Below, piece after piece: positions 4,101 through 63,336 of a DNA stretch of 64,000 nt. Position numbers and translations under genes: made by a program. The notes beneath the pieces were generated by a model. The model was not told where the DNA came from, made no database searches, and saw nothing but the letters and a program-made list of their open reading frames with translations. Source of the stretch: Geosiphon pyriformis uo1 (taxonomy: Eukaryota; Fungi; Glomeromycota); assembly GCA_016748015.1 (NCBI GenBank), contig JAAOMT010000470.1, positions 175,788-239,787 of the forward strand, given 5' to 3'. Position 1 is the stretch's first letter. Each line of letters starts with the position of its first letter.

Positions 4101-6637
4101 TTGATACTGTGTGGCTTCTATGATAAGAACTTTTATAAATGTGACAATATTATTGACTTTAAATAAGAAGTCATTAATCTTGCCAATAAGAGTTTTAGTT
4201 GCTTTATTGGCTGTAATAATTTTTGTGCTAACAGCATAATTAACTTGGTAACCTAATTGATTCATGAACTATCATGTAATAATACTATCTATTAACTCAC
4301 TATTGAGAATCAGTTTAATAAACTGGCCATCAACTTTGGTGTTGGTGTATATTGTGATAATGGGCTTGGTATTTAGAACAGTTCTACTGAATAATAGTGT
4401 TTCTAATGGAGTTTCTATTTCAAAGAGAAATATTGTGATGAGAAATTTATCTTTTATAATGGTTGTTAGTAAAATGTTGGTAAGTGTTTGTTTCTAATTA
4501 GTTTCTGGTTTGTTGGATTGAATGTTTTCTGGAGTAACTAGAAGACTTAAATAGTTCTGGAAATTTGGGTTTTAGTTATACCCAGTACTTAAATTCCACT
4601 AATGGAATTCTGATGGCTGACTAGATGAACTAGAAATCAATTAGTACATTACTATTACCGATCTTTAATTTTGCTGTGTATATGTAATTTTCAGTTTTTG
4701 GTTTTTAGATGACATTTAAGCTGAGTTCTATGGTGGTGTTGAAATAGATTGGGTTTGATAAATTACTTGTGGCTGTGGTTAATAAATAACTGGGGCTGAG
4801 ATTTGATAAATTAGAAGTGTGTATATTAGTTGTTGTGTTATTAATATGTAATAAAGTTGATATTGATTTAATTTAAGAAATAATTCAGAGTTTAAAACTG
4901 ACAATTGAGGTTTTAATACTGGTTTTTTGATCATTAATTATTGATTCTGGTGTGACAATTTATTTTTACATGGCTTTGTTTTTCACAATTGTAGCAAACA
5001 TACATTTCTGATTGCCATGGTTGATTTGTTACTAATAATAGACATAATTAATTCTAAAATTGATTTGTGTTTCTCTGTTTTTTATGATATTGTAATGGCT
5101 GATAAATTGCTTGATTGTTGTTGTTAGCTAAGTATCTTTCTAATTTCTGGTTGATTGACTTATTGAATTGCCTCAGTTTTGAATTCAATTCAAATGATCC
5201 ATTTATTACTAAGTTTATGACTTGGGTATAGTTGGCTTCTAATTTAGTTGATTCAAAGTCTCTGATATGATTGATTGCAACTTAAAGTGTATTTGGGTGC
5301 ATTAGACGTATTTATTGCAATAAACTATAGTGTAAGTCTTAGATAAATTGATTCAAGATCTGTAACACTGTAAAATAGTCAGCTTTAATTGTCTAGATCT
5401 AGCACAAATTTCTGTGGAAGTGTCCTAAATAAATAGTGACTGCTTTAGTATCTCCTTGCTTAATAATAGTAAAGCTAATAATTAAGCAATTGATGCTATT
5501 ATAATTGTTAAAATATTGTAGAAATACAACTTTGAACATGTTAAAATCTTGGGATTATTTTATAAGATTTTAATATCATAAATCGGCTGTATCTTAGAAA
5601 AAATATGGAATTGTTTGAAGAACTTTGGTGTCATTTCAATTATTAGCTGCAATTGCTTTGGCAATGTTATTTAACTATGCTTGGGCATTATTCTCTTTGT
5701 CAGTGAATTTTTTGATTTTGGCAATTGGTATATAAGTCATTGGTTGTGGTTGTGGTGGTAGTTGTGGTGGTGGTTGGAGTTGTAGTTATTGTTGATAAGT
5801 GACTATTAGTGCAATGGATAGAGGATTGATCATGATTACTAAAAGTAAGTTCTGAAAAACAATAGAAGCTGGGTTTGAATGATTTGGGTTTTGCTGAGTT
5901 GGAACAATCAGAGTTTGAATTTCTGGGTTTTCTGGAATTGAGTTTTGATTATTAACTTCCCAATTACTATCTTCTTCTTCTTCTGAATTAGTTATTTCAC
6001 AAGGACTAGCAGCTCCAAAATCGAGTTGAGGTGGTGGAAATTGAAATTCTAATAGCATAGGTAATTACAACTTAAATCCTTTAAAGTAATTGTTATAAGT
6101 TTCTAATAAATTGGCTTTTTTTTGTTGGCTTTGAAACATGATTTTTGCTGCTGATGTTTTTGCTGTTAATGTGGACACATCTGCTAATGTAATGTTGATG
6201 GTATTCCCTGATATATGATGATATAATAGGTAAATGAGTGAAATTACTCTTGGTTTCTTTTAAGTAGATGATTGTATGTTTTTTGGTGTTCTTGTTAGTG
6301 TTTATAATTTTTCTTTGTTTTTGTCTGCAAAGATAATAGGAAATTTTTGTCTGGTGTGTTTTTCAATTTTTTTATTAATTTCCATAATTATTGGGACAAA
6401 CAAATAATTTTGTGAAAGAGTGGTGTTTTGAAATAATTCACTATAAAAATTGGTAAATGCTGTTTTCAGATTTTTTTGATCTTCTAAATGAGATTTGATC
6501 CTTTTATTGATGTAAAAATTGAAGATTAACTCTGCTGGCCAATGATTACTTGTTAATTCTAGGTAAAGTTGATAGTGTTAGAATAAAGCTTTCATAAATC
6601 TTAAGTGGTTTGCCTCTGTTACTTCTAATTCTGCTAC
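1133..6637 (-). pseudogene. B gag-pol pseudogene: Gag, CCHC knuckle ~4950-5000, aspartic protease ~4000-4370, Cys-rich domain ~3110-3760, dUTPase ~2460-2855, RT ~1133-1990
   Basis: ORF-track fragments are collinear with the less decayed copies E, G and H, with many TAA/TGA/TAG stops. Confidence 0.88.
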
Positions 6638-16194: not shown

Positions 16195-19100
16195 GTGGTG
16201 ACTTAAACAGATTCAAGAACTCTAGAGTATTATCAGTCAATCTACACCCACTGCAAGCAGAGATTTAACATTCCAGACGGAATTGAAACATTCAAGAAAA
16301 CACTTTACCAGTACATTGAAAATTGCATCAACAATTATCTTCTTGAAAACTACAATATTTCAGAAGTTAGACACAACTTATATGAAAGCTTAATACATTA
16401 CTCTCGTCTAAACACTTAGGATTTTAACAGTCAAATACTTGAAACATACTTCCAAGAACTCAACTTCAATATCATTCAGTATTGTGAAAAAAATTACCCA
16501 GTAAAACAGAAATTTTCTCTTAGTTTTGAATCGGAAACAGAAGAAGGAAAAAAAAAAGGAAACAAAAACTCAGAACTACTCCCAATACACCTAAAACCAC
16601 TGCCAAATATTTACAAACTCCAGAACAAGAAACCAGCTTTAAATTACCACTCTTAATTACACCATTTCCAGCTTTACTTGCTTAGCCGCAAACACCAAGT
16701 TTACCACTTATTTGGTTTTCAAGAATAGAAGATTTTCAGTCACCCAAAAGCCCTATTCAACAACAGGAACCAATATTAACCAGCACAAACCTTATTGACT
16801 ACTTAGCAAAAAATCAAAGTGAAGAGACCAAATCAGAACAAAAAACAGAAGACTCAAAAAATGAAAAAAAAATGGCCTCCACATATATCACAAAAATCCC
16901 TGAGTTCACAGGAGAAGACAATGAAACCAGTTCTCAAGAATGGCTTGACAAAGTCTCAAAAGCAGAAGATGCAAATGGTTGGAATGCTGCCAGAATGTTA
17001 AAAACAATTCCATACTTCTTACAAGGAACAGCTGGTAAATGGTTTGAAAACTTGGAAGCCCTGCCAGAAAACTGGAAAGCATTCAAAACTGCTTTTCTAG
17101 AACAGTTCACTGACAATAACACTTTCATTACTCTTTCAAAATCGGTTTTGAAATATCAAGCAAGAACCAAGTGAATCAATTATGACCTATCTTGGGAAAT
17201 TCAACAAACTGCTTAGAAGAATTTGCCAATTGGAAACCAATGAATACTACTCTAATGCACAAATCTTGGATCAATTCATTGCTGGACTAAAAGACAAACT
17301 TATCAAAAAAGTTTGCCCACATGCACCAGAAGATTTAGCCACTGCTATTCAACAGGCAAAAAACTATGAAATGGCCATGGAAAAAGCCAACTGTACCAAA
17401 CTTGTTAATCTGGCTATTGGAGAAACCAGTTCAGCAGCTGAAGAAAAAATTGACCAATTAACCAAGAAAGTTGAAAACTACTTCACCAACCAACAGCAAC
17501 AACAGCAGCCATAGCAATTACAACAACCACAAAGATACCAACCCCCACAACAACACAATCAAAACAAATTCGGACCACTATCCAACAACCAAATCCAAAA
17601 TTGTCACTATTGTGGAATTTTAGAACACTGGAAACATGATTGTAGAAAATTGCAACAAGACCAACAACAGAGGAACAATCAATGTTATTCCCAACCACAA
17701 CAATCATATTATCCACCACCACCAGCTCAATATTTACCAAGGCCACAATATCCAAACCACTATTATCAACCTGCTCTACAACCAATCCAACAACAGTATC
17801 AACAACCATCCACACCACAATATCAAGTGCTAGCCAGAAAATTGATTCAATATAATCAATTTACATCACAAAACCGTTTTTCAACAAACAACAACAGATT
17901 TAATTTCAACAACTAATTAACCACTTAAAATTCGAATCAACATAGGTCCACACATTATCACACTCAACCCAGTTATCTTACAATACCAGAGGAATCAAAT
18001 TTTCAGCAAACTGCACTTTTTGAAGGTGAAGCTGCAGCACCAAGACAAAACCCTTCCAACAATATTATCTCACCAGCCAGAATTGCCCGAAATGCCAATC
18101 TTTCAGACATCTTTCCATTCGAATTTGAAGCCAATGAATTACCATCTCTACTCAGCAATGTAGCAGTTAACAAACAAAAAGCTATTACAGCAATGTATAC
18201 TGAAGCTGAAGTAGAAGGAAAACCAATTCGCTTAATATTAGACAGTAGATCTGCTGGAAGTATTATCACCTACCAATTAATACAACAGCTTCAACAAACT
18301 GTTGACAAACCAGCTCAAACTGTTATCATTACAGCAAATGATATAAAGAAGACACCAGTAGGAGAAATTGATAATTTTCTATTCACCATTGATGGAATCA
18401 CTATTCCAGTTAAAGTCCTAGTCATGGATGCACCCCAATATCAAGCTTTTGTTGGAAATGATTGGCTTCTCAAGACCAATGCAAATTTAGATTGGGAAAC
18501 TCAGGAATTAAAAATCTTATATCAAGGACAACACACCATAATATCTGTTATGTGTGGAACTTTCAATAAACAATCAAAAAAAGCCCTAGTACTTGAATTT
18601 GAAGAAGAAAAAAAAATGCCACTCACTGAAACCTACATGGCTCTTGAATTAACATCCAATTGGGCTGAGGAAACAAAACAAGAAATCTTTGAAGAATTAA
18701 GAAGATGGAAAAAAGTTAGATATTCTACACCAGAACCATGAAAACAATCACCCTACATTCCACTTAAATACAGAAATTGTAACAAAAAACTTTTATCAAT
18801 GGAAGCCTGCATTTTGCCTAAAGAAAAATATGAAAATCATACTTGTTATTACTGCAAGACTTGCCACAGAGAACGATAGGGCCATCTAATAAAAAGAAGT
18901 GAAAAATGGGACAACACCCCTTGTTTGACTTGTGGAGATATGCTACCAGAAGAATGCAATTGGATTGATGTAGCAATGAAAGGAGAAGTCTGCAATCAAA
19001 TTTGCCAATATGCTTTATCAATTTCAGAAAAAGTTAAAAGAGGAACACTCTTTAATGCAGCATACAACAGTGCTTTTAACAAACTTTATCACTACTCCCA

Positions 19101-24959: not shown

Positions 24960-27380
24960 TTATGAGTTTCTCTTTGAGGGTAGCTCCATTGAACAATAGG
25001 ACTTCTGAGAGTTCATTAATTTCAAAGAGAAATATAGTAACAAGTGACTCATCTTTCATAATGGTTACTGGTAAGATGTTGTTAGTAAGTATGGATTGTT
25101 GATTGGACTCTGGGTTGTGGGATTGGGTGTTTTCTAAGGTAACCAGAAAACTTAAATAGTGTTGGGAATTCGAATTTTGGGTGGGCCCAATTCTCAAATT
25201 TTGTGACCGTAATCCTGTTAAATAGTGTGAAAAGCTAGGGATCAGTTAGTGAACAACCATTGCTGATCTTTAGTTTTAAGCAATTCTGGATCTCGGATTG
25301 CCTGATGTCATTTGAGCTGGGTTTTGGAGTAGTGTCTAAATTGGCTGTGGTTGATAAATTACTGGTGACTGCAGTTGATAGATTGTTTGGTGCTGTGGTT
25401 AATAAATTGCTGGTGTCTGTGGTTGATAAATTGAAGGTACATATACTGGTGGTTAATAGATTGGCTGCTGTGTCATTGGCTGGTAAGTGGGTTGATATTG
25501 ATCTTGATTTGGGTAATGGTTCAGGAGGTTTGAAATTGGTGATCAGAGTTTCTGTATTGATTTTCTGATTGTGAGTTACTATACAAATGGCAATTGACTC
25601 AGATATGGTCTTGTTTACTACAGTTGTAGCAGACATGCATCTTAGGCTGCCATGGCTGATTGGATGATAATGATGATCATAACTGATTTTGAAAATGATT
25701 TGTGTTTCCTGAATTATTGTGTTATTGTGGTGGTTGATAAATTGCCCAATTGTCAGCTAAGTATCTCTTTAATTTCTGATTGATTGAATTACTAAATTGT
25801 TTTAATTTGGAATCCAATTCAGATGATCTATTTATTACTAAATTAATGGCTTGGGTATGGTTGGCTTCTAATTTTGCTGTTTCAAAATCTCTGATGTTGA
25901 TAACTACAGCTTAAAGATCTGCTGAGTGTAATAGACATATGTATTGGAGAATGCTACTGCACAATCCTCTAATAAATTGATTAAGAATTTGTGGTGCTGT
26001 AAAATAGTCAGCTTGAATTGCCTGAATTTGGTGTAGGTTTCTATGGAAGCATCTTATATATGTAGTGACTGCTTCAGTTTCCCTTTGTTTCATGGTGGTG
26101 AAAGTGTTGACCAGGTAATTGATACTATTATTGTTACTAAAGTATCTCAAAAACTCTGTTTTGAATGTGTTAAAGGTGACCAGTTTGTTGATCAAGCTTT
26201 AATACCAGGAATTGGCAGTGTCTTGTAAGAAGTATGGAATTGCTTGAAGTGCTCTGGCATTGTCTCAATTATTAGCAGTAATGACTTTTGTGACATCATT
26301 AATTTATGCTTGGGCATCATCTTTTTTGCTGGTGAATTTTTTGAGTTTGGTGATTGAAGCATAGGCCATTAGATTCAAGTTTAATGGTTGTTGTGGTAAC
26401 AGTTGAGATTGTTGCAGCTGTTAAAGTGGCTGTTGAGATTGTTAAAATGGTACTGGCAGTGGTTGGATTTACTGATCCAGTTGCTGTAATGGCTAACCAA
26501 TTGGTTCAACTGGTTAATTAATTATGATTTCTGGAGGTACATGTTGTTGATTAATTAAATCAGAGTTTCAATTATTCTGATTTGGCGGTGTTTGAATATT
26601 TGGAGCTTTGATTTCTGGATTTTCTAAATTTGAATTTTGTGGAGTTTGACTGTTTGGAGTTTCAACTTCTGGGTTTTCTGGGATCAGGTTTTGGTAAGTA
26701 AATTCCTGATCTTCTTCTTCTTTTTCTGATTTTGTTACTTCTCATGGGTCAAAAATTCCAAAATTGGATTGAGATGGCAGTGATTGATATCCTGATGATG
26801 TTGGTAATTGTGATTTAAATTCTTCAAAATATTCACTATATATTCCTAATAGATCTGTTTTCCTTTGTTTACTTTAAAATAGAAGTTGGCCAAACATTGA
26901 TGTCATATTTGATGTGAATGCATCTACTGACATTATGTTGATGGCACTTCCAGATGTATAGTGATAGGATGAGTTGTTTGGTGATTCAACTCTGGTTTTC
27001 TTTCAAATAGGTGGTTGTATTTATTTTGGTGTTACAGCTGGTGTTTGTAATCTTCCTTTGTCTTTGTTTATGTAAGTGATGAGGAATTGTTGTTGGGTGT
27101 ACCTTTTAATGGTTTGGTTTATTTTTCTGATGATTGGTGTGAAACTGTAATTTCTTGGTAAGCTGATATGTTGAAACAATTCTGTATAGAAATTTTCTCT
27201 TGTGGATTCGATGTTAACTGTTTCTCCTAAGCAATCTGTGCTTTTGTCATTAATGTAGAAGTTAAAGGCTGATTCTGCTGAGAAATGGTTATTGTTTAAT
27301 CCTAATTGTTGGCTGTACTATTGAAACAAAGATTTGGTGAATCCTAAATAGTTGGTTCTTATAATTTCTAATTCTGCTAC
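24960..27380 (-). pseudogene. C gag (5' part of gag-pol)
   Basis: Retrotransposon gag core (FLRYFSNNNSIN...QILNQFIRGL), knuckle near 25600, Q/P/Y-rich linker. Confidence 0.88.
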
Positions 27381-42600: not shown

Positions 42601-45275
42601 TTAAATATGCATGGATGATAGTAAAACTTTGTTGCGATGTGGTATTCCTTATTGTTGCCACAGCATGCGCCCATTGACGACAGTTTCTTGCTGCAATTGA
42701 CGCATACAAGCTTTGGCTGATGATAATTGGATTGTTGTGGAGTGTGATGGGTGTAAGAATTATAAATAGTAGCAGTTGGTGGCATTTCTTCTTTCTTTTC
42801 TTTTCTTTTTCCCTTATCTTTGTTTCATTCCCAACTTGAGACTTCTTCTTGTTCATTGTCAGTCCAAGTCAGATCATCAGTTTCCCAGATAAATTCATTT
42901 GTTTGCTTTTTTTTCTTGTTGTCATCCCAAGAGAGTATTGGTGGCAGCTCATTGTACTCTTCGTTAGCCCACGACACTTGGTAAGCTTCCCAGGTAGGTT
43001 TTGGTTTCTCTTCCTCAAAGTTAATTAGTGGTGCCATGGTGTTGGTAGTCTTAAAGTGGCCACACATTGCTGGTACATGCATGTGTCACCAGTTCTGGCT
43101 GATTTAAAGCTCTTGTGTGTTCCAGTCCAGAGTGACATTTGTCTTGGACAGCTAGTCATTACCAATTAGAGCTTGGTATTGGATGGCTTCCATAACAAGT
43201 ACTTTAATTGGAACTATAATGCCATTAATTTCAATTGGTAAGTCATTGATTTTACCAATTGGAGTCTTGGTTGCTCTATTAGTCATGATGATTCTGGCAC
43301 TAGCAGCTCAATCAACTCGGTGACCTAATTGATCCATGAGTTGTCATGTGATGATGCTGCCTGCTGAACCACTGTCAAGAATTAGTTTGATGGGATGGCC
43401 ATCAATTTTCACATTAGTGTACATGGCTGTAATTGGCTTTTCTTCTAGTGCAGCTCCACTGAATAATGGCATGGTTAACAGTTTCTTAAGTTCGAATGGA
43501 AAAATGGCGTCTAGAGATTCATCTTCAGTGATTGTGGCAGGTAGAATGTTGCTGGTAGGTGCTTGTTTGAGTTCTCAGTTGTTGGGTGTGGCATTTTCTG
43601 AAGTAACCAAGAGACTTAAATAGTTTTGGGAATTCAGGTTTTGGATGGCGCCTGTACTCGAATTCCGAGAACGGGGTCCTGAGCTTTGATAAGAGGAGCT
43701 GGAGATTGGTTGATGAACAACCATTGCTGATCTCTAATTTTGAGCAATTCTGGATCTCGGGTTTCCTGATTTCATTGTAGCTGAGTTTTGGAGCAGTGTT
43801 TGGATTGATGGTTGAGACTAATAAATTATTTGGGGCTGCGGCTGATAAATTATTGAAGGCTGCTGTTGATAAATTGCTGGTGGCTGCGGTTGATAAACTG
43901 GAGGTTGATATACTGGCAGTTGATAGATTGGTTGCTGCATTATTAGCAGGTAAGTATTTTGATATTGGTTTTGATCTTGATTTAGATAATGATTCAGAGT
44001 TTGGAACTGGCAATCAGGATTTCTGTATTGATTTCCCAATCATTGGTTGCTATAAGTATGGCAATTAACTCGAATATAGCCTTGTTTACTACAGTTATGG
44101 CAAACACGTGTTTCTGGCTGCCATGACTGACTAGGTGCTGCAGATGATAATGGATGTGACTGATTTTGGAAATGATTCATGTTTCCTGAATTATTGCATC
44201 ATTGTAGTGGTTGATATATGATGCGATTGTCAACTAAGTATCCCTTTAATTTCTGATTAATTGACTCACTGAATTGTTTCAATTTGGAATCCAATTCAGA
44301 TGATCTATTCATGACTAGGTTTACTGCTTGGGCGTGGTTGGCTTCTAACTCAGCTGCTTCAAAATCTCTGGCATGTGTAACTGTGGTAGGAAGGTCAACT
44401 GAATGCATTGGGCATATTTGTTGGAGGAGGTTACTGCACAAACCTCTAATAAATTAGTTCAAAATCTGTGGTGCTATAAAATAGTCAGCTTAAATTGCTT
44501 GGATTTGGTGCAGGTTTCTATGAAAGCATCCCAAGTAAGTGGTGACTGCTTCAGTCTCTCCTTGTTTGATGGTGATGAAAAGGTTAGCTAACTTGTTAAT
44601 GCTATTATTGTTACTGAAATATCTTAAGAATTCTGTCTTGAAGTCGTTGAAGGTTTGAGATTTGACAGCTAGACTTTGATACTATGCATCTGTGGTGTCT
44701 CTTAGAAAGTATGGGATGGCTTGAAGTGCTCGGGCATCATTTTATCTATTCACAGTAATGGCTTTCTCTACGTCATTCAGTCATACTTGCGCATCATCCT
44801 CTTCACTGATAAAGTTGTCAAGTTTTACAATTGGTATGTAGGCCATTGGGTCTAAGTTAGGTTGTTGTGATGGCTGTTGAAGTGGTTGTTGTTATACTGG
44901 TTGTTGGAGTGGTAGTTGAAATGACTGCTGTATGGGTTTGGCTATTGGATTAATTGGTGGTTGATTGATAACAATTACCGGAGGTAAGTTTTGCTGATTA
45001 ATTAATTCGGGGTTTGGATTGTTCTGTCTTTGATGTTTTGAAGTTTTGATTTCTGAATTTTCTAGATTTAAATTTTGCTGAGCTTGAAGGTTTGGGGTTT
45101 CAACTTTCAGGTTTTTGATAATTGGTTGTTGATAAGTAAATTCTTGATCTTCACTTTTTTCTTCTTCTTTCTCTGATAATTCTCACAGAGTAGTGATTCC
45201 GAAATCTGGTTGTGCTAGTGGTAATCGAATTCCTGATGGCGTTGGGGATTGTGATTTAAATCCTTCAAAATACAT
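39602..45275 (-). pseudogene. E gag-pol, main part (N-terminal piece at 53155-53704)
   Basis: RT 40134-40790 (MPFGLTNAPATFQ, YLDD), dUTPase 41440-41825, LILDSGSAGS near 43370, CHNC.K.G.I..NC knuckle. Confidence 0.93.
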
Positions 45276-46244
45276 TGTTACCAAATGAAATTAGAGATAT
45301 TATTTAGCATAAAATTATCTTATAATTCCTATCATTAATTAGCATATATTATCATTTTAAATGATCACTTATTACATTAGCAAAAAAATGTCCAAAATTA
45401 TTATTTAATTAATAACTCAAATTGTACACAACACAAATGTAACCTAATTGCGATGATCAATCATGCAATACCCTGAACTATGTAACATTCAGAAGTTTGC
45501 CAAAATTTGTAGAAATTTGCTGAAATAATTGATAGTTTACCGAAATATCTAATAGTTTGCCAAAATAACTTGTAGTTCGCCGAAATGTATCTTTAGTTCA
45601 GCAAAATTGTAGAAAATAGCAAAGTTCAAGTTCATAGAATAGTGTTACAACAAGTTGTATAAAAGAAGAGCTTCTCTCTTTGAGAAAATGTATCTTACTT
45701 TAGATTTATCACTTAGAACCATTCCTACATACACAAAAAGAAATAAATATAAAACCAAACTCTTTAAATTATTGCACTTGGAAAATCCTTAAAACCCAAC
45801 TAACATTTTGAAATTGATTAGCTACCAATTTCAGTAAACTGTTAGTGACTCCAGGCCTGGATAGAAAACGTTTCCCTTGATAAAATTTCATTTCTTTTAC
45901 ATTTTTTTTATTTTCTTTTATTTTCTTATCATAATCATTAGAGTAACCTACAGACAAGATTCCTGTAGAAGAGTTGACTTTCACAGCAAAGTAACTACAC
46001 ATTTTTTGTGAACTTCCAGACGAGCAATTTCTGGGAAAGAGTTGACGTTTACTACAATGTAACTACATAAAGCAACTGGCACGGAATTGGCCATTCCACT
46101 TATAAGCCCAGCAGTTCAAATTATAGGAGATAATTTGAAGATAAATTCAGTTATTGGAGGTTCAACCACATCCAGAAAACGTGAATTTACAGCAAATAAG
46201 TATCAACAACATTACAGAAAAGAGACCAAAAACCTCCAGTAATA
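45276..46244 (+). repeat. 5' LTR of G
   Basis: TGTTAC...GTAATA; homologous to the F LTRs. Confidence 0.95.
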
Positions 46245-46292
46245 TTTGGTGCTCTCCCACGGAAATAACACAGCAAAAAAAACAACTTCAAA

Positions 46293-49200
46293 GTGGTGAC
46301 CACACCAGACACAACAACTCTAAAGTATTACCAATCAATTTACACCCACTGCAAGCAAAGATTCAACATTCCAGACGGAATTGAAGTTGTCAAGAAATCA
46401 GTATACCAATACATTAAAAACCGCATCAACAATTATCTTTTTGGAAATTACAATATCTCAGAAGTTAGAAGCAACTTTTACAATAATTTAGCACACTATT
46501 TACAGTTGGAAACTGAAGACCTTAATAGTGAAACACTTGCCACTTACTTTCACAAACTTAATTTTAACATTATCAAATACTGTGAAGAAACATATCCAGT
46601 GCAGTCTCAATACACTATTGATTTTGAATCAGAAACAGAAACAAGCAACAAAGGCAAAAACAAACTAAAGCAATATTCAAGAACCACCCCAAATACTCCA
46701 ACACTACCAAAAACAACTGCCAAACATTTACAAACACCTGAACAAAGAACCAGCTCAAAACTTCCACTTACTATCACACCTTTTCTAGCTTTACTTGCAC
46801 AAACACAAACACCTAATTCACCCTTGAATCAATTTGCAAGACCAGAAGATTTTACATCACTCAGAAGTCCCACCAGACAACAAGAACCCCTTCAAACTAG
46901 TTCCAATCTCCTTGATTTTCTAGCTGAAAATCAAAGTAAACACTCTGTGACAGCAGCAAATGAAGAAAACAACTCTGAAATAACTGAAGAAGAATCAATA
47001 GACAGTGAAAACGAAGAAGACGAAATGACAACATACATCACAAAAATCCCTGAATTCAATGGAGAAGATATTGAGACCAGTCTTCAAGAATGGCTCGACC
47101 AAGTTACTAAAGCTGAAGATGCAAATGGATGGAATGCTGCCAGAATGTTAAGAACAATTCCCTACTTTCTCAAAGAAACAGCAGAAGAATGGTTTGAAAA
47201 CCTTGCCGCCCCATTCAATGATTGGAATGCTTTCAAAGCAGCCTTCCTTGAACAGTTCACCGACAATAATACCTCCATCACTCTTCGCAATTGTTTTCGA
47301 AATATCAAACAAGAACCCTCCAAATCCATTATGACTTATATTGGGAAATTCAACAAACTTCTCAGACGGATTCGCCAACTCGAGACAAATGATTATTATT
47401 CTGATGCTCAAATCTTGGATCAATTTATCACTGGTCTAAAAGATAAACTAATTAAAAAGGTTCACCCACACACGCCAGAAGATTTAAACTCTGCCATACA
47501 GCATGCGAAAAGATACAAAATGGCCATGGAAGAAGCCAATCGTACAAAACTTGTAAATTTGGCAATTGGAGAACCCAGCTCAGCAGCTGAGAAAAAAATT
47601 GACCAACTCACAAAGAAGGTCAAAAACTATTTTTCCAACCAACAACAACAACAACCCCAAAGATATCAACCACCCCAAAAACGAAATCAAAATAACTTTG
47701 CACTACTTTCCAATAACCAGCCCCAGAATTGTCATTACTGTGGAATCTCCGGCCACTGGAAAAGAGATTGCAGAAAGCTACAACGAGACCAACAAAATAG
47801 GGGTAATCAACGTTACTCTCCACCACAGCAATCTTATTATTAACTATTACCACCAGCTTACTATCTATCAAGACCCCAATACCAAAATAACTATTATCAG
47901 CCTGCCCCACAACCAATCCAACAGCAATACCAATAACCACTCACACAACATTATCAAGTACCTGCTCGAAGACTGATTACACAAAATCAATTCACACCAC
48001 AAAACTGATACCAAGTAAACAACAGTAGAATCAATTCAAACAACCAATTGGTTCCCCAAAATACCACTCAACCAAGATCCAACCATTACCACACTCAACT
48101 TAGTTATTTAACAATGCCAGAAGAACAGGATTTTCACCATACTACATCCTCAGAAGGTAGAGCTGCAGCACAACAACAACGAAATCCTTTTCATAACCAC
48201 ACCACTATTCCACCAGCCTGAATTGCTAAAAATGCCAATCTCTCTGATATCTTTCCTTTTGAATTTGAAGCAAATGAATCACCATTCTTGCTTAGCAATG
48301 CAGCGGCTAATGAGCAAAAAGCCATCACTGCAATGTATGCAGAAGCTGAAGTAGAAGGAAAGCCAATTCGCTTGATTCTAGACAGTAGATTTGCTGGAAG
48401 CATTATTACCTACTAGTTAATGCAACAGTTGAAAAGAAATGTTGACCGACCAGCTCAAACAGTAATCGTCATTGCCGATGGCATGAAAAAGACACCAGTA
48501 GGAGAAATTGACAATTTTCCATTCACTCTTGATGGAATCACCATTTCAGTCAAAGTTCTTGTAATGGACGCATTCCAGTACCAAGCTCTCGTCAGAAATG
48601 ATTGGCTTCAAAAAGCCAATGCTAATCTGAATTGGGAAACACAAGAGTTAATAATCTCCTACCAAGGACAACACGCCCGAGTACCTGCCATTTGTAGTAC
48701 ATTCAACAAACGCTCTAAAAAAGCCCCAGCTTTTGAATTTGAACCAGAAGAAGAAAAACCAATAATCGAAACATTTATGGCTCTTGGATCAATGTCCAAC
48801 TGGGCCGATGAAACAGAACAAGAACATTTTATCCCACACACTAAACCTGAAACCTCTGAATGGAATATATCTTACTCAAAACTCGAACCAAGAAAACAAT
48901 GCCCCTATATTCCCCTTAAATGTAAGGACTGCCACAAGAAACTATTGTCAATGGGAGCCTGCATTTCACCTGAAGAAGAATATGAGAATCATACTTGTTA
49001 TTACTGCAAGGCTTGCCACAGAGAGCAATGGGGCCATCTAATAAAAAGGAGCAAAAAATGGAACAATACCCCTTGTTTGACTTGTGGAGATATGCTACCA
49101 GAAGAATGCAATTGGATTGATGTAGCAATGAGAGGAGGCGTCTGCAATCAGACCTGCCAATATGCTTTATCAATTTCAGAAAAAGTAAAAAGAAGAATAC

Positions 49201-51914
49201 TCTTTAATGCAGCATACAATAGTGCTCTCAACAAACTTTATCACTACCCTCATAATGCCGAGATGATTTTCGACTTAGCAATGGCATTAATTAATGGAGC
49301 TACCAAAAAAGATGTTTGTCAAATGAAGGAAGCAGAATACATTGAATACACTATGGAATTAGCTGGATTCAATTATGAAGATGAAGTAGAAGTCTACCAC
49401 CAAATTGCAAATCACACCTACCTGACCCAAGAAGCTCAAATTCAATGATTAGAGCAAATGAACATTAGGCTATGTGAAGAATGCATTATGCCTTGCGATG
49501 AACAGTGGTGTTTTGAATGCTATGCTTTTAGTATCCCCTTGCCCAACGAGAATGATGAGAATGAAATTGAATTTGGAGAACCTAAAGAAACAGAAGAAAT
49601 TGAAACAACACCCATCTACCTTATTGAAAATCAGTCTGCTTTACAACTTAAATACTTCAACAACAACGGACAAGGAATAAAACCCAAAAAGACACACAAA
49701 ATTGATGCTGGATATGACCTAAAATATCCAGGCAAAGATACTCTTGTTCTCAAACCCAAATCTCTCACAAAAATCAACCTCAAAATTGCACTCGAAATCC
49801 CATCAGGAGCAATGGTTCAAATCACCTCCCGGTTCTCTCTGGCAAGCAAAGGAATCAATGTCAGAGGAGGAATTATTGATGCTGGATATACTGGAGACAT
49901 AACAGTGATGCTTCAAAATGAAACTGACAAACCATTTAAGATCGAACATGCTGAAAAAATTGCCCAAGCTATTTACCTACCCTTAATCAACATTTCGGGT
50001 TTGCAACTAGTCAATCAAAGAGAACAATTAAGAAAAAGCGATAAAGGAACCCAAGGTTTTGGTTTAACTGGACGATTCACAGTTCCAGTTAATATAGCTC
50101 TTAACACACAAAACAAATCCCACCAGATTCTCAGACTTCCACAACCAATTACCATCTCACCTTTTGGAGAACATCTGGAAATCTACATTTGCACAAAGCC
50201 AACAACCACACAACAAATTTTTGAGTCCAATGAACAAGTCTGCTTGGAACATAATATTTTGATCCCAAACATTTATATTCTAGAAGAAACAAAGAAAGTC
50301 CGAGTTACTTTTTACAACCCCAATAATTACCCCATAATTTTATTAAATAATTTAGAAATTGGAGTTATTTACAGTAATATATTTCAATAAGAATTACCCC
50401 AAACAGTCCCTGATTTCCCTGAAATTATTGGACATTCACTACTGAAAATCAACCCAAACCCTAGCTCTGAAAACTACTATGTTGTCATGGAAAAACTATC
50501 TTGAATCAACATGGGACAACTTGAACTATAACAACAAACCCAGCTCAAAGAACTAATTGCAGAATTTGCTGATATCTTCGCCGAAAACAACAATAACTTA
50601 GGAAGAACTGATTTGGTTCAACACCAAATCTATACAGAAGATGCCAAACCCAGATGACAACAAGTCTACCGAGTTGCTCCAGAAAGTCACCAATTTATCT
50701 GAGAAGAAGTACAACGGATGCTTAACAATAGGCTTATTCAACCATCAATAAGCCCATGGGCCTCACCTGTGGTTCTAGTTAAAAAGAAAAATGGAAAGAT
50801 ATGATTTTGTGTTGATTACTGACAACTCAACAGTGTCACCATTGAGGATGCCTACCCTCTTCCCCAAATTGATAATATGTTGGATGCCCTTGGAAAGTCC
50901 AAATACTTTTCGACATTAGATTTAGAGAGTGAATACTGGCAAGTTGCTATGGATCCCAAAGACCGCCCCAAAACAGCATTCACCACTCAAGGAGGAAATT
51001 ATGAATTCAATGTAATGCTTTTCAGATTATGCAATGCACCAGCAACATTCCAAAGACTCATGGATGTTGTTTACAAAGGCCTCCTTTGGAAATCAGTAGT
51101 AGTTTATCTTGATGACATTGATGTTTATTCACCATCTTTTGAGCTACATTTAAGTCACCTGCGAGAAGTTTTTCAATAATTACGGAAAGCAGGATTGAAA
51201 CTAAACATTGAAAAATGCTACTTCGGAAAAACAAGTTTAGCTTTTCTTGGTCATATTGTTAGCAAAGATAGAATTAAACCAAACCCTGGAAAAATCAGTA
51301 CTATCAAGAACTTTAAGACTTCACAAAATACCACAGAATTAAAAGGATTTATTGGATTAGCATCTTATTACCGAAAATTCATCAAAGGATTCTCAGAAAT
51401 TGCAAAACCCTTCAACCAGCTCACTACTAAAAATGTCGAATACAAATAGACAGAAGAACACCAAAATGCCTTCGAGATACTTAAAGAAAAACTCACAACA
51501 GCTCCAATCCTCACCTACCCAGATTTTAGCAACCGATTCTGGTTAGCAACTGACGCCTCTTATACTGCCTTTGGTGCCATCCTATTACAGTTAGATGACA
51601 ATGGAAATGAGCAAGTAATTGCTTATGCTAGTAGAACATTAAAGCCAGCCGAAAAGAACTACCCCACAACAGAATTAGAAACCGCAGCAGTAATCTGGGC
51701 CCTACATCACTTCAACCTTTACTTCAGACTCAAAGAATTCAATATTATCACTGATAATATTGGACTTAAATGGCTTCAAAACAAAAACACCCAGCTGAAC
51801 ACAAAACAAATCCAATGGACAAGATTTTTAGCTAATTACCGATACATCATACACCACAAACCAGGAAAACTCCACACCAATGTTGATTGTCTCTCAAGAA
51901 TGAGGCAAGATTAG
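46293..51914 (+). pseudogene. G gag-pol: one 1874-codon frame (Gag, CCHC, PR, Cys-rich, dUTPase, RT, RNase H) broken only by nonsense mutations
   Basis: ORF-track pieces starting at 46293, 48420, 49458, 50877 and 51195 are all in frame; CHYCGISGHWKRDC; DAGYDL/GIIDAGYTG/KIAQ/GTQGFG; YLDD; ends CLSRMRQD*. Confidence 0.95.
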
Positions 51915-52173
51915 AAAACAAAACCAACACCCATCTGAATTAACAGCATCAAAACAACAAACAATGAACTCTGAAAACTACAACAATCTCAAACAATATT
52001 TTCTACACAACAACATTATCTATTATTAAAATTTCAAAAACCCAACCAAACCACTCAGATTAATACAAGAACCAGAAAAAGAGACCAAATTTTTTCAATA
52101 ATTTTGGATTATTATCTGGAAATAACAGACAGTACTTGGACTTCGATGGAGCTCAGTCTTGAGGAGGAGGTTA

Positions 52174-53154
52174 TGTTACCAGACGAAATTAGAGATATTA
52201 TTTAGCATGAAATTATCTTATAATTCCTATCATTAATTAGCATATATTATCATTTCAAATGATCACTTATTACATTAGCAAAAAAATATCCGAAATTATC
52301 ATTTAATTAATAACTCAAATTGTAAACAACACAAATGTAACCTAATTGCGATGATCAATCATGCAATACCCCGAACTATGTAACATTCAGAAGTTCGCTG
52401 AAATTTGTAGAAATTTGCCGAAATAATTAATAGTTCACTGAAATATTTAATAGTTTGCCGAAATAATTTGTAGTTTGCCGAAATGTATCTTTAGTTCAGC
52501 AAAATTGTAGAAAATAGCAAAGTTCAAGTTCATAGAATAGTGTTACAACAAATTGTATAAAAGAAAAGCTTCTCTCTTCAAGAAAATGTATCTTACTTTA
52601 GATTTATCACTTAGAACCATTCCTACACACACAAAAAGAAATAAATATTAAATAATTCGAAAAACCAAACTCTTTAAATTATTGCACTTGGAAAATCCTC
52701 AAAACCCAACTAATGTTTTGAAATTGATTAGCTACCAATTTCAGTAAACTGTTAGTGACTCCAGGCCTGGATAGAAAATGTTTTCCTTGATAAAATTTCA
52801 TTTCTTTTACATTTTTTCTATTTTCTTTTATTTTCTTATCATAATCATTAGGGTAACCTACAGACAAAATTCCTGTAGAAGAGTTGACTTTCACAGCAAA
52901 GTAACTACACATTTTTTGTGAGCTTCCAGACAAGCAATTCCTGAGAAAGAGTTGACATTTACTACAACATAACTACATAAAGCAACTGGCACGGAATTGG
53001 CCATTCCACTTATAAGCCCAGCAGTTCAAATTATAGGAGATAATTTGAAGATAAATTCAGTTATTGGAGGTTCAACCACATCCAGAAAACGTGAATTCAC
53101 AGCAAATAAGTATTAACAACATTACAGAAAAGAGACCAAAAACCTCTGGTAACA
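52174..53154 (+). repeat. 3' LTR of G
   Basis: Direct repeat of 45276-46244. Confidence 0.95.
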
Positions 53155-53704
53155 ACGTGCCATATGGTTCTAGTAAGTCTTCTTTTTGTTGTTTGCTTTG
53201 GAACTGAAATCTTTCAAATATTGATGTCACATTTGATGTGGATGTATCCACTGATGAAATATTGATGGTGCTTCCAGGTGTGTAGTGATATGATGGAGTG
53301 GTTGGCAATTCTATTCTATGTTTCTTTCAACTAGGTAACTGTATTCCTTTTGGTGTTGCTGCTGGTGTCTGTATTCTTCCTTTATCCTTGTTTGTATAGG
53401 CAATGAGGAATTGTTGCTGTACATATCTTTCAATACTTTAATTGATCTCTCTGATAATTGGTGCGAAACTATAGTTCCTTGGTAAGCTGGTATGTTGAAA
53501 CAGTTCTGTATAAAAGTTTTCTCTGGCTGATTCAATGTTTACTGTTTCTCCTAAACAGTCAGTAATTTTATTGTTGACATAGAAGTTGAAGGCTAATTCA
53601 GCTGGGTAATGATTACTATTTAATCCTAATTGTTGGCTGTATTGTTGAAACAAGGATTTTGTGAATCCTAAATGGTTTGCTCCTATATTTTCTGATTCTG
53701 CCAC
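53155..53704 (-). pseudogene. E gag N-terminal extension
   Basis: GTG at 53704, (V)AESENIGANHLGFTKSLFQQY...; continues at 45275. Confidence 0.85.
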
Positions 53705-53766
53705 TTTTGGATGGTGTTTGTTGATGCTGGTTTTCTGTAGGATTATACCTTACAGGGAACACCAAA

Positions 53767-54616
53767 TGTTACAGTTGATTAATTGGGGTCTTGAATCCAA
53801 TAACAAACTCATAACTTGGTGCTCAAAAAGCTATTTCCATTGATGATATTCTGAAAGTGTTGTATCTAAAGGTTTTGATGGAGTCTTTTGTATAATAGAC
53901 AAAGATTCAATAGTTGTTTTATCCATAGCTTCCCAGACTTGCAAGTCTGTCAATTCTTTTCTCAGCTTGGTGGCTGGCAATTTTCTGGTAAGTAATCCAT
54001 ATTTTTTGTATGTGTCCTATCCACTCACAGGAGTCTTTTACCAAGCAATCCTTGACGTCAGTAATCAGCACTTTTAATTAATTGGTTAGTGCACAATAAC
54101 AAAATCACAGAAAAATAAAGAAAATAAAGAAATCTAAAGAAATAAGCCAAGGCAATTTGCAGATTAGTATTCCATCAATAGCCGTAATCAAAAGCTATTA
54201 TTCCAGTGTGGTTAAGTATCAATTACTATCAACATAAAGTGTTGATAGTGAGAAGTGGATTGAGATATGAAATAATTATTTATTTGATGATTGTGTTTCT
54301 AGGCTAAGGATTCGGTGGTATTAATTCTGTCTTTTCTGTTTCTAACACTACTGTTATATATACATATTTGAAATTCCTCAATTCTTCAATTCCTTGTAAC
54401 AGGAATCCTGGAATTCCTGGAATCTTACGATTTCTGATGAGAGGAATCCTGGAATTCTGGAATCCTGCGATTTTTTGTCAGAGAATTCTGAAATTCCTGG
54501 AATCCTGCAATTTCTCTAAGAGGAATTCTGGAATTCCACATTTACTATGTCTACCTCTGATTGGCTAATATCTACTGACTAATAATACTATATTTTTCTA
54601 TATTCTATGAGTAATA
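53767..54616 (-). repeat. 5' LTR of E
   Basis: Direct repeat of 36607-37456 with adjacent PBS. Confidence 0.95.
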
Positions 54617-55043
54617 GTATATAGTAATATGATGGATTAGCAAGTGAATCAAATCTTTGTTTCTTCCAAGTGAGTAGTTGAATTTGCTTTGGGGTTCCTG
54701 CTGGTGTTTGTAATTTTTCTTTTTCTTTGTCCACAAAAGTAATAGAAAATTTTTGCTTGGTGTATTTTTCAATTTCTTTGTTTATTTCTGTGATTAAGGG
54801 TGCAAATAAATAGTTTTGTGGAAGGGTAGTGTTTTGGAGTAATTCACTAAAGAAATTGTTAAAAGCAGATTCTGAATCTTTTTGATCTTCTAAGTAATAT
54901 GCAATTTTTTCATTAACATAACAATTGAAAGTTGATTCTATTGGCCAATTATTATTTACTAATCTGAAATAAGTGTGATAATATTGGAATAAAGATTTTG
55001 CAAATCCCAAGTGATTTGTTTTTGTTTCTTCAGATTCTGCTAC
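54617..55043 (-). pseudogene. D gag N-terminal extension
   Basis: LGFAKSLFQYYHTYFRL...; homologous to E 53438-53704. Confidence 0.85.
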
Positions 55044-55107
55044 TGTTTTGAATAGTTGCTATTGGTGCTGGTTCTCTGTTGGATTATACTTTACAAAGAG
55101 CACCAAA

Positions 55108-55954
55108 TATTATAATTGATTATTTGGGGTCTCAAATTAAATAACAAACCTGTAACTTGGTACTAATAGCTAATACAATTATTATGATCTGAAGATTTTG
55201 GTTGTTTGAAGATTTGGTTGAGTCTTTTGTATAATAAACAGAGATTCAATAATTGTTTTCAGTAGTCTTCCAGAATTACAATTTTGTCAATTTTTTTCTT
55301 AGCTTGGTAACCAGTAATTTTCTAATAAGTAATCCTTAATTTTAAGTGTTTATCTTTTTACAGAGGTCTTTTACCAGACAATCCTTGATGTTAATAACTC
55401 AGTGCTTAATCTTTAATTAATTAGTAACAACAAAGAAATAAAATACAAAAAAAAATTTAAAGAAAATAAAATGTAAGCCAAGGCAAATAATGTTAGTATT
55501 TTGTCAATAGTCATGATCAAAAGCTATTGTTCTAGTGTAATCAAGTATTTGATACTATCAACATAAAGTGTTGATAGTGGAAAGAGTAATTTAAATGGTA
55601 ATAATTATTTATTGATATTGATAATTATAATAGAGATGTGGTAATGGAAAGGTATTGGTAATTCTTAAATTATTCTTTTTTGCTTTTAATGCTTTTATTA
55701 TATATACATAATTTAGATTCTATGAGATTACTCATATTTCCAAGTAATATGCTATAATTTCTTGAGCAATACTCATATTGTTAAGCAATATGCTCTAATC
55801 TTCTAATATTGCTCCACATTGCTAAACAATATGCTGTAATTTCTGACATTACTCCATATTGCTGAGCAATGTGCTTATGTGCTAACTACTACTTTCTTAT
55901 TTGTCTATCTGTTTTTCTTTTATTTTTTTTTATATGTTTTCATTATAAGTAACA
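55108..55954 (-). repeat. 5' LTR of D
   Basis: Matches 8163-8370 plus 28314-28957; ends GTAACA; PBS adjacent. Confidence 0.92.
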
Positions 55955-56552
55955 GTGACAAATTTTCATGTTCAGCCCATATGCTATATTTGCTATTATT
56001 TGAATAAAAAATGTATTTATTATGGACTACAAGAACTCTTTCTTTTTTTCTATTAAGTAAGTTAGTACATATTTGATCCATAAATTCATTTTTATACTTT
56101 GACATATATTTTTTATGCTCATATATTTTTTCAAAAAAATTTTTTCAAAATTACAAGACATTATTTCTTTTATGTTTATTATAATATAAGCCTTAATAAT
56201 GTTGTTGAAATAAATAACTAAGAATTTTGAACCATCTTATTGCAGTTATAAGACTAGTAGTTTTTTTATTATTATTCTAATATTAAAAAACAATTTATGC
56301 TTAATGAATTTTTTAAATGTGGTTGGAGTAACATTGAAGTTTTGGTTTTTAATTCAATTATAACATCTTTCTGCAATGTCTTTATTATCAATTATTCTAA
56401 TTTTTTTTTGGTGTTTTCTATGTTTTAATGTTGAAAGCTTATTATTAAGCAACTAATACTTTACAAGATATCAAATTTTTTGTGCTTTTTATATACTACT
56501 ATTAATAAAAACTTTCTGTGCAATTTTCAAACTAACATTAATTTTTTTATGT
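55955..56552 (-). pseudogene. Decayed DDE DNA transposase, upstream fragment (continues at 8162)
   Basis: Translation ...KHRKHQKKIRIIDNKDIAERC...TAIRWFKILSY...GLYYNKHKRNNV...VLVVHNKYIFYSNNSK..IWAE is consistent with the YYDGHER.DV and HDE..FY.ND motifs after G>A decay. Confidence 0.72.
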
Positions 56553-60600: not shown

Positions 60601-63336
60601 CTTGCAAACCGAGCATTCTAACTTTGGTCTGCGTCACTGGTGGTTTCTTTGTGAACTTACCTGGTTCTATTCAGATCTTTTTTTGCTGGTCCACATTGGT
60701 ATGGCTGGTAGTCCTGTTCTTTGGTCATCAGCCCAAGAGAGCTGATAGGTTTTGATGACTGGTAGTGCTGGATTTTCCTCAAATTTGAAAGTAGGTCTTT
60801 GGTTGGCACTGGGTTTTTGGAAGTGGTCACAGGTGGCTGGAATTTTGGCCTGGTGGCCATTATAATTGATCAGAAGCTCTTGGGTGGTCCAGTCTAGGGT
60901 GGTGTTGGCTTTTGTTAATCAGTCATTCTCTACTAACACTTGATATTGTGTAGTATCCATTACTAATACTTTTGTAAGTATTACTATGTTGTTAATTTCA
61001 AAAGGAAATGAGTCGATTTTGCCATAAGGCAGCTTTGTACTTCTATCGGCTGTTATGATTTGGGACGTTGCAGCACGATCAACTTTGAAACCCAGTTGGT
61101 TTACTAGTTGAAGCATTACGATGCTTCCAGCAGATCTGCTGTCTAAGATAAGTTTGATTGGGATATTGTTTACAGTGGCTTCCGTATACATAGCAGTGAT
61201 TGGGCGTTTTTCGTCTAATGCTGTTCCACTAAACATAGCCTCGTTTTCTTCTAATTCAAAAGAAAAAATAGCTATGAGGCTGCTATTTTCAGTGGCAACT
61301 GCTGGTGGTATTGTCTGGCTCAATTTGTTGGAGGAATTCTTGATTCTGTTTATGTTTTTACCATTATTATTTCCAATGATCAGATTTTCTGGTATATTAA
61401 GATAAGTTTGTTGATAATTTTGGTAGTTTGGATTGGTTTGCTAATTGGTTTCGGCGTGGTTTGGATTCCTCTGGACCAACGCATTCTGGTTCTACATGGG
61501 CTGATTTTGGGCCTTGGGATGTCAATTCGGGTTGGCTATCATGGGCTGTTGCTGGTAAGCTCCTTGATTTTGATACATGATGGGATATTGGTGTAGTATT
61601 GGTATGTACTGGTTTCTGGGCATTTGGGGTGGCATGTAGTAATTATTTTCGTGTGCTTTCTGCATCATTTGCGTTCGACATTGACTAATCAAATATCCTA
61701 CGTATTTGCAAAAATGGCAAGCACGCGTTTCTGTTCTGAATTCCTGGCGCAATGAGCGATTATTTCAACTGTTGTTGACTTCCTGGCTGCGTTTTTGGGG
61801 TGGTTGGTATGTATTTCTTCCCAGATCCGGGATGAGGTAACTTTCTATTTTCTTAGAGAGTTCCTCCCCTAATTGTGTTACTCTTTTCTCTAATGTTTCT
61901 GTCTTATTTTCCTCCATTACCATGTTAACTATTTGACTATGGTTAGCTTCTTTCTCAGCCAATTCAAGGACTCTGGCGAGCGTAATGGCTTCTGGTAAGG
62001 AATTAGGGTGGGTAGGGTGTACTTTTCCTAAAATGCTACTTTTTAATCTTCTAATAAACTGATTTAAAATCTGAGGATCAGTGTAGTATCCTTGTTCAAT
62101 CGCTTCAATCTAATGACAAATTCAATTGAATTGAGCAAGGTATTGGGTAACAGTTTCACTGGTATTTTGCTTGATAGTATTGAATTCATTCTGTAGTTGG
62201 ATTATGGTATTTGGGTTGCTAAAATACTCCAGGAGTGCATTTTTAAATTTGGTGAAGCTTGTGAGTTTTGTTTCCAGGCTTTGATACCACGAGTTGGCTG
62301 TGCCTTTCAGGAAGAAAGGTAATGTTTGAATTACTCTTTGGTCATTCTAGTTATTTGCTTGAATGGCTTTTTGTGCTTCTCTGAGCCATGTGTGCACGTC
62401 TATTTTTTTTTCCTCTCCTGAGAAATCTGTTAGCCTTGCAATGTATGGTGTGGTCATTTCGTTGCTGTTTTCTGCTGGTGGACTTATTGGTCTAAGAGGA
62501 AGTGGGATGATATTTCCTTGAGCATTCCTAAAGGTGACTTCCCTTATATCCAGTTCTTCCTCTTGATCACAAGTTTCTTGGTTTCTGGACTGGCTGCTTG
62601 TTCCAGTAACTGGTCTTGTGATTGTTTTTTCGCTGGTCTCTTTTTCGGATTCCAATTCAGACTCCTCTTCATGGTTTTCAAACCCCATTCTAAATTTTGG
62701 CTGAAAAAAAGGGTTTTGAAATAGTGATGAATATTCTCCTGTAATTGGTATGTCTCTCCAGTTACATTGTTTAATTTTATCAGTATAACTAGGAGTTCTT
62801 GGCATTTGTGGAGTTGATGTTGATGATGATGCAGCTCTTAATGGAATTTGTATCTTATTTTCTGGTGAAAAATGGTATGATTTATCTTCTGGTAAATAAA
62901 TATGTTGTTTCTTTATTGATTAAGTGACAGTTTTCTTTGGTGTTTGAGCTGGTGTTCCTAGTTTTTGCTGGTTACTTTCCTGATTAGTTTCTAAATTTTT
63001 TTTGGTTTTGTTGGCACGTTCCCTAGTGTTTCCTGTGGATATTGGAAAATTTTCGTTGGTGTATTGCTCAATTTTTCAATGGATTTTGACAATAGTTGCG
63101 GCTATTACTGCTACTTCTTTTGTAGTGTATTGTGATAATTCTCTATACAATCCAAGTTTTGCGTCGTGTGGTTCTTCTTCCTTTCCTATATGATAATTTA
63201 TTTTGGCATTGATATAATAAGTGAGGGCAGATTCTGCTGGACAACACCCTTCTGGTAATCCAAGATCACTTTGATTTTGTGTGTAAATAGCATGGCAGAA
63301 TTCAAGAACAATAAGATTAGGGGTTTTTGTTACCAC
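57625..63336 (-). pseudogene. H gag-pol: one 1904-codon frame broken only by nonsense mutations
   Basis: ORF-track pieces starting at 63336, 62805, 61323, 60591, 59997, 59631 and 57993 are in frame; CHFCKYVGYLISQC, LILDSRSAGS, AGFDL, YLDD, ATDASGTGLGAIL. Confidence 0.95.

Follow-up and report, generated by a model that had tools for sequence, protein, structure and literature searches.

At which codon does Gag begin in a Ty3/gypsy retrotransposon whose gag frame opens without an ATG? In a 64,000-nucleotide stretch of Geosiphon pyriformis uo1 DNA (assembly GCA_016748015.1, contig JAAOMT010000470.1, positions 175,788 to 239,787 of the forward strand; hereafter, the window), self-comparison and domain searches revealed seven nested, decayed Ty3/gypsy elements, called B to H, and one solo long terminal repeat (LTR). 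An initial annotation of this DNA had proposed that gag starts at a conserved GUG shortly after the primer binding site (PBS), behind a leader poor in AUG, and that a second AUG at the capsid gives a shorter Gag isoform. We examined this proposal mainly in element G, which lies on the plus strand and begins with a 5′ LTR (TGTTAC...GTAATA) at 45276..46244. The seven elements fall into three lineages: G/F, B/C/D/E, and H. Homologues came from three protein searches (the best 120 of 422 matches, the best 120 of 142, and 90 of 90), and 330 of 330 among the matches listed are G. pyriformis gene models. A profile search matched 362 proteins, of which 150 were listed.

A conserved GTG where the gag frame opens

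In element G, the PBS begins with TGG 2 nt past the LTR end (46247..46262) and is followed by the sequence AAAGTGG, whose GTG occupies 46293..46295. The same sequence opens the frame in F (GTG at 16195..16197, plus strand), E (53702..53704, minus strand), and H (63334..63336, minus strand), and GTAGCA stands at the corresponding site in B (6635..6637), C (27378..27380), and D (55041..55043), all on the minus strand, as the initial annotation had described. An in-frame TAA lies 9 codons upstream of the GTG of G, and 244 codons without Met then run to an ATG at 47025; in every copy the frame is closed by a stop 6–23 codons upstream of the site. The frame opens 44–80 nt past the PBS at an A-rich sequence followed by GTG-GCN, with spacings that fall into all three mod-3 classes. 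No ATG occurs in the PBS-to-site spacer, and 12–16 of the 25 nt upstream of the site are A in all copies. The strong context that had been claimed for the GTG (A at −3 and G at +4) was borne out.

The homologous gene models allowed us to read the start column itself. Val occupies this column in 93 of 104 models related to G/F, 110 of 115 related to B/C/D/E, and 67 of 77 related to H. The consensus therefore has no ATG at the start site, Val being present in 270 and Met in 14 of 296 models (7, 3, and 4 in the three groups), a Met count that is biased because gene predictors favor copies having an ATG. Ile was found once, in the G/F group. In nine further models the residue is Leu, because the predictor spliced at AG|TG, and these likewise require TG at that point. 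The next residue is Ala in 67/110, 101/115, and 55/77 models, respectively, and the flanking residues and the spacing from the start to the first helix vary between lineages.

Decay in these elements takes the form of C>T and G>A changes and is strongest at CpG, where LTR pairs are unlike at 0.59 and 0.82 of sites, compared with 0.14–0.35 in non-CpG contexts. Real Met columns accordingly decay to Ile, as seen in the capsid (Met 67 and Ile 14 of 84 models in one column; Met 50 and Ile 11 of 63 in another). We therefore rejected ATG as the ancestral start codon, since true Met columns decay to Ile and the start column is Val. The Met:Ile ratio of 14:1 at the start column also indicates GTG rather than GTA, as G>A decay predicts. 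GUG is the second-ranked near-cognate start codon in the cited section of a review (PMC5666671).

AUG avoidance from the leader to the capsid

Between 45691 and 47024, element G contains two ATGs in any frame (46057 and 46960) against 14–17 expected, in agreement with the earlier count, and both can be explained by CpG decay: the first is ATG in two of the four G/F LTRs and ACA in the other two, and the residue following the second is Glu in 66 homologues and Lys in 53. Over the seven elements, ATGs occur 5.2 times per kb of leader and 5.3 times per kb of the extension ahead of the capsid, compared with 17.2 in the capsid-nucleocapsid region and 19.3 in pol. The leader of G (R-U5, PBS, and spacer, 45691..46292) has one ATG in 595 nt, and the seven leaders together have 23 in 4,445 nt, an observed-to-expected ratio of 0.35; the leader is depleted of AUG, as proposed, but it is not AUG-free. 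A general loss of ATG through decay was rejected as an explanation, given that this ratio is 0.99 in pol of the same copies.

The depletion affects all three frames. Per 100 codons, the extension has 0.55, 0.85, and 0.10 ATGs in the respective frames, versus 1.2–1.7, 2.4–3.2, and 1.2–1.4 elsewhere, and out-of-frame ATGs number 0.95 in the extension, 3.9 in the capsid-nucleocapsid region, and 4.4 in pol. A junction test, which compares how often G follows AT-ending codons and other T-ending codons, removes amino-acid bias. In the extension, G follows 17 of 192 AT-ending codons (9%) versus 95 of 352 other T-ending codons (27%); the corresponding values in pol are 195/628 (31%) and 354/1,102 (32%). 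The depletion is significant singly in six of the seven copies. The AUGs left over in the extension are mostly at CpG-decay sites, as are 7/7 in H, which stand at CpG-type columns. The homologue columns give evidence that is independent of the window's own DNA: where an Asn, Asp, His, or Tyr codon is followed by G, G>A change reaches the CpG level (>0.2) in 11 of 13 extension columns and 7 of 15 capsid columns (one-sided p 0.03), compared with 16% of other columns. Mutation at the CpG rate implies that these junctions were originally NAC-G and not NAT-G.

Counted in 200-nt bins pooled over the seven copies, ATGs number 6, 7, 5, 9, 9, and 5 before the capsid AUG and 40, 14, 18, 21, 15, and 10 after it, and the control triplets CAT, TTG, CTG, and GTG showed no step at this point. 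Because out-of-frame AUGs in a coding region matter only when they are scanned, the depletion is the main argument for leaky scanning. As a separate observation, the count in the first 200 nt past the capsid AUG (40 per 1,400 nt) overshoots the later level about twofold, which is partly due to conserved Asn-Gly, Asp-Ala, and Trp codons.

The capsid ATG of G, the proposed short-form start, lies at 47025..47027 and is the first stable Met column, as is its counterpart in each lineage. The conserved Met claimed for the capsid start is encoded by ATG in six of the seven elements (F 16872, E 44846, C 26369, B 5740, and H 62457 in addition to G); D has ATA near 36123. The extension of E is split by G, and that of D by E. 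None of the 243, 336, and 292 extension columns (871 in total) in the three homologue sets is a stable Met column, compared with 4, 4, and 6 columns in the capsid-nucleocapsid region, where the capsid Met of G is additionally split over two columns by an alignment shift. Met accounts for 0.13, 0.28, and 0.39% of aligned extension residues versus 1.7, 1.3, and 1.8% of capsid residues, and those extension columns that are rich in Met mix it with Thr or with Val and Ala, as is typical of CpG codons that have decayed. The Pfam Ty3_capsid match in G begins at the conserved Met, at profile position 7, which suggests that the short form would match an ordinary Ty3-type Gag-Pol, to which the extension would be an add-on.

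Some AUGs are retained upstream of the GTG. In TATA promoters the cap site lies about 30 nt past the TATA box, and an AUG there is poorly used. The TATA box of G (45658..45665), kept in 4/4 G/F LTRs, would set the transcript start about 30 nt downstream, where an ATG (45688..45690, just outside the previously annotated interval starting at 45691) is present in 4/4 G/F LTRs and opens frames of 13–35 codons that differ in length. This ATG likely sits at the cap site. The B/C/D/E lineage keeps a 7-codon upstream open reading frame (uORF), Met-Leu-Ile-x-x-x-Thr-stop, found in the 5′ LTR of E at 54212..54235 on the minus strand. It lies 127–179 nt below the TATA box; its length is kept in 8/8 LTRs, and its start is ATG in seven and ATA in one. 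The context of this ATG is poor (a pyrimidine at −3 and T at +4), and judged from these features the uORF may be leaky or permit reinitiation, and may act as a regulator of start choice or be a DNA or RNA motif. The remaining leader ATGs alternate with ACG or ACA among copies. The leaders also contain palindromes (CCAGGCCTGG in 4/4 G/F LTRs, window 45850-45860; CTTGATCAAG in H; a TGATCA core in the E type), which are candidate RNA dimerization sites. In the U5 of 4/4 G/F LTRs (window 45965-46075), a motif of about 30 nt occurs in two direct copies (GAGTTGAC...GTAACTACA).

Two probable starts and the competing explanations

The feature is real and strongly selected, and a conserved GUG combined with a shortage of AUGs that covers every frame and ends at the capsid AUG is the pattern predicted by leaky scanning. 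We consider it probable, from the sequence evidence, that these elements make two forms of Gag-Pol through initiation at the GUG and leaky scanning to the capsid AUG. Ribosomes would scan the unspliced RNA in a cap-dependent manner from a start near TATA+30; Met-tRNA would initiate at the GUG part of the time, and the other ribosomes would run on to the capsid AUG. The products would be a minor long and a major short form, and a few long subunits would co-assemble with the short ones, bearing a four-helix domain on a flexible linker. The two Gag isoforms of the initial annotation are thus upheld by the homologue columns and the all-frame depletion, with initiation itself deduced from sequence.

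Both forms would be Gag-Pol because gag and pol share one frame. The capsid and CCHC zinc knuckle of G (47025..47777; PF19259, PF03732, and PF00098) continue, according to domain searches, into protease, a Cys-rich segment, dUTPase, reverse transcriptase (RT), and RNase H (47778..51911). Counted from the GTG, the frame of G contains 18 stops in 1,902 codons. Up to the protease region, all five stops in G fall on Gln/Arg columns and the first ten in H fall on Gln/Arg/Trp columns, which indicates decay and a single gag-pol frame at least to the protease. On the same grounds, we rejected the idea that a programmed stop separates gag from pol.

Several points weigh against two starts. The GTG is read as DNA in four of the seven window copies and deduced from protein columns in the others, and three of the four B/C/D/E copies have GTA, which is above what the per-pair CpA change rate of 0.14–0.25 readily gives. 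The homologues are gene models predicted automatically on decayed copies within a single species. The p-values overstate the case, since they count kin copies as independent and the lineages number only three, although the three agree. The out-of-frame deficit of H falls short of significance (5 in 292 versus 30 in 1,062 codons, p 0.4). One conserved leader AUG is present in each of two lineages (G/F and B/C/D/E), the capsid AUG has C at −3 in C, E, and B, and the scanning distance would be 1.3–1.7 kb. No shared hairpin was found downstream of the GUG, with z scores of −2.3 to +2.3 in six copies.

The best surviving alternative, which we nevertheless regard as unlikely, is that the long form starts at a spliced AUG, with an exon ending in A joined to AG|TGG at the site or an upstream ATG exon spliced to an acceptor within the PBS spacer, and that ribosomes on the unspliced RNA scan as far as the capsid AUG. 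Splicing of this kind would predict the all-frame AUG depletion equally well. Every lineage has AG|TG at the site, and the nine gene models with Leu used this acceptor; AAA|GTAACT is conserved in G/F, and one of 442 gene models (P0150) links the uORF AUG to the extension. The splice sites themselves argue otherwise. The acceptor would be AAG in five of seven copies, with T making up only 5–25% of the 20 nt upstream and no YTRAY branch-like motif within 50 nt in six of seven copies, and better CAG or TAG acceptors lie 15–33 nt upstream of the site. The base before the GT at the LTR end is T in B/C/D/E and H and is G or A (a CpG site) in G/F, so that such an intron would yield TTG or GTG and not ATG. 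An A|GT donor common to the lineages was not found, and a donor behind the uORF AUG is missing in C. The gene models diverge in their first exons (49, 65, and 48 different first pentapeptides among 88, 94, and 57 models), and the starts they use most often are either ATGs produced by CpG decay or sites upstream of the TATA box. A spliced ATG exon, which the initial annotation had named as a challenge to its proposal, therefore looks unlikely from these indirect splice-site checks.

Three sequencing runs, none of them recorded as RNA, were aligned to G and gave 14 joints, none with GT..AG ends, a result that is silent on splicing or expression either way, and 0 of 40 listed differences (248 in total) at the GTG. 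Poly-T loose ends at 45891 were dismissed, as a T-rich tract lies there. We also observed that E-type LTRs (at about 53960, read on the plus strand) and the H LTR conserve TTACTTAC, which contains a perfect GTAAGT donor on the antisense strand, making an antisense transcript possible.

Production of the short form from an internally started RNA, as for Ty1i/p22, or by internal ribosome entry or shunting, would account for the long scanning distance and for the single leader AUG kept in G/F and in B/C/D/E, and Ty1 offers a precedent. Neither an internal promoter nor internal entry, however, would need the AUG avoidance seen here, which extends evenly from the leader through the helical domain and linker, and we find this quite improbable. 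Slightly less credible still is the idea that the GUG is the sole functional start and that protease frees the capsid from one long polyprotein, the conserved Met being a cleavage-site or structural residue. Single-frame polyproteins have to be processed in any case, not every lineage has a strong context at its capsid AUG, and a mild junction deficit exists in the capsid-nucleocapsid region too (45/235 versus 84/293, p 0.014); yet a polyprotein started only at the GUG leaves unexplained why out-of-frame AUGs are purged over 240–340 codons and return in the 200 nt past the capsid AUG, and why the first stable Met stands at the same site in three lineages. Equally doubtful is entry into the extension through several near-cognate codons, each of them weak, or through reinitiation downstream of the uORF, for which profiling of the glyco-Gag of murine leukemia virus (MLV) is suggestive, in the part of that work drawn on here, with little signal at the accepted CUG and a pointer to neighboring starts, or a role of GTGG, close as it is to the PBS, as an RNA signal for packaging or priming, given that, from the upstream stop to the first helix, GTG is the only near-cognate codon that the lineages all share, that it keeps frame while the PBS distance varies through all mod-3 classes, and that Val-Ala-Thr/Glu resembles a Met-Ala N terminus.

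The extension, its setting and its parallels

Two starts would give the long form an extension of 226–337 residues ahead of the capsid across the three lineages. Its helical block, said earlier to be conserved across families, does align over G/F, B/C/D/E, and H, at 17–23% identity. Nucleotide differences in the helical part favor third codon positions (28:15:45 for G/F and 17:12:42 for E/C), and 32 of 69 transversions pooled from three disjoint pairs lie there (p 0.017), so the extension is coding. AlphaFold2 predicted four helices over residues 7–100 (46311..46592 in G; predicted local distance difference test score [pLDDT] 77), followed by a disordered low-complexity linker rich in Pro, Thr, Gln, and acidic residues (46593..47024; pLDDT <50 from residue 115). 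The family of the helical domain did not emerge from Pfam (best E 0.0065, in 1 of 12 members, not significant) or from PDB sequences (best E 0.21). Foldseek searches of PDB and BFVD yielded nothing at E ≤ 0.001, and the Atlas gave no usable match. A retroviral matrix domain is not supported: four helices are predicted, but no matrix protein is among the Foldseek matches listed. Residue 2 is Ala, not Gly, and the net charge of the first 125 residues is −3 to +5. No membrane anchor was found in the extension: the best 19-residue hydropathy is 0.66–1.37 in six of the seven copies and reaches 2.05 only in B, within a decayed Pro-rich linker. The four-helix domain of the long subunits would be an accessory module, perhaps host- or RNA-binding.

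The surrounding elements have the structure expected of Ty3/gypsy: direct LTRs with TG...CA ends, 84–96% identical within pairs, a PBS, and the order capsid, nucleocapsid, protease, RT, RNase H, and integrase, with integrase last in C, D, E, and F. Domain searches found no integrase match in G, B, or H. In G, RNase H is followed almost at once (51911-52174) by the 3′ LTR (52174..53154), which is 94% identical to the 5′ LTR, and G may carry an internal deletion or be a non-autonomous form. A dUTPase lies in frame between protease and RT in all seven elements and thus in every lineage (49683-50072 in G), and ahead of it comes a Cys/His-rich segment (about 48850-49550 in G) without a Pfam match at E 0.01. 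A tRNA gene search of the window found none, and Rfam gave 0 matches in 45200-56000. F and G lie on the plus strand and B, C, D, E, and H on the minus strand; F is inserted in C, E in D, and G in the extension of E. The 4-bp target duplications are perfect at F and off by one transition at G and E. The insertion junctions are 15170/24956, 45275/53155, and 54616/36606, and of these three elements that sit in other elements, two hit the gag extension.

A striking LTR expansion in Geosiphonaceae is reported in the cited part of a published survey (PMC11952901). From one DNA sequencing run, 18,494 contigs aligned to 1.7 kb of G (9 and 3 from two other runs), which indicates that the G family is very abundant. 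Hundreds of annotated host "hypothetical proteins" (among P0001-P0442) are decayed Gag copies with invented upstream exons and inflate the gene count.

Several known systems resemble this arrangement, as far as the passages cited describe them. PEG10, a domesticated mammalian Ty3/gypsy gag-pol gene, makes Gag from an upstream non-AUG codon and a downstream in-frame AUG, and both forms also yield a pol-extended product (PMC2800197). It differs in being a host gene that uses CUG, adds 34 residues, has a −1 frameshift, and has a splice variant adding an AUG (PMC2800197), whereas the Geosiphon elements are mobile and have a GUG, a long extension with a predicted folded domain, and one frame through protease. 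VP2/VP3 of adeno-associated virus likewise come from one mRNA, with a weak ACG for the minor N-extended subunit and leaky scanning to the major AUG (PMC10112878); that system is an unrelated DNA virus with a different capsid fold, and the ratio and co-assembly are here presumed. In MLV glyco-Gag, the near-cognate codon upstream of and in frame with gag is CTG rather than GTG, and the extension is read at about 7% of gag (PMC5120145, PMC5778647). Its 88 residues include a signal sequence and make a type II membrane protein (same sources), whereas our elements have no hydrophobic anchor, their AUG opens the capsid and not matrix, and env was not detected in them. The analogy with glyco-Gag drawn in the initial annotation hence holds for the translation mechanism, a non-AUG start upstream of gag, and fails for the signal anchor, so that the long form is not a glyco-Gag.

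Among fungal LTR retrotransposons, Ty1 also has a long and a short Gag, but p22, made from an internally started RNA with AUG starts, is missing part of the capsid (PMC5408680), which the short form here would keep whole. Cer1 is an LTR retrotransposon with an extra protein, CERV, tied to the Gag region; CERV is encoded by a spliced mRNA as a protein of its own (PMC10309623) and is likened here by its description. By analogy, it could offer a lead for the function of the helical domain, in genomic RNA export. Filamentous fungi are known to open long conserved AUG-free extensions at near-cognate codons, as in Neurospora cpc-1, although this is a host transcription factor of another phylum with several weak starts (PMC5487733). 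In the open-access literature, searched at the level of titles and abstracts, a GUG-started Gag extension in a mobile LTR retrotransposon was not found. The mechanism is known from viruses and PEG10, and its use here with a large new domain appears undescribed.

We rate as an even chance the fuller picture in which one unspliced RNA and one frame supply mosaic particles, the GUG metering in a minority Gag-Pol with the new four-helix domain, a kilobase of coding sequence staying clear of AUG in every frame to let most ribosomes arrive at the capsid AUG, and the uORF perhaps letting the translation state of the host tune the ratio. If true, a very abundant fungal element family would carry a hidden accessory domain that is invisible to ATG-based annotation. 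All-frame AUG avoidance ending at the capsid Met would also provide a simple signature for recognizing two-start Gags elsewhere, for which decayed copies allow statistics.

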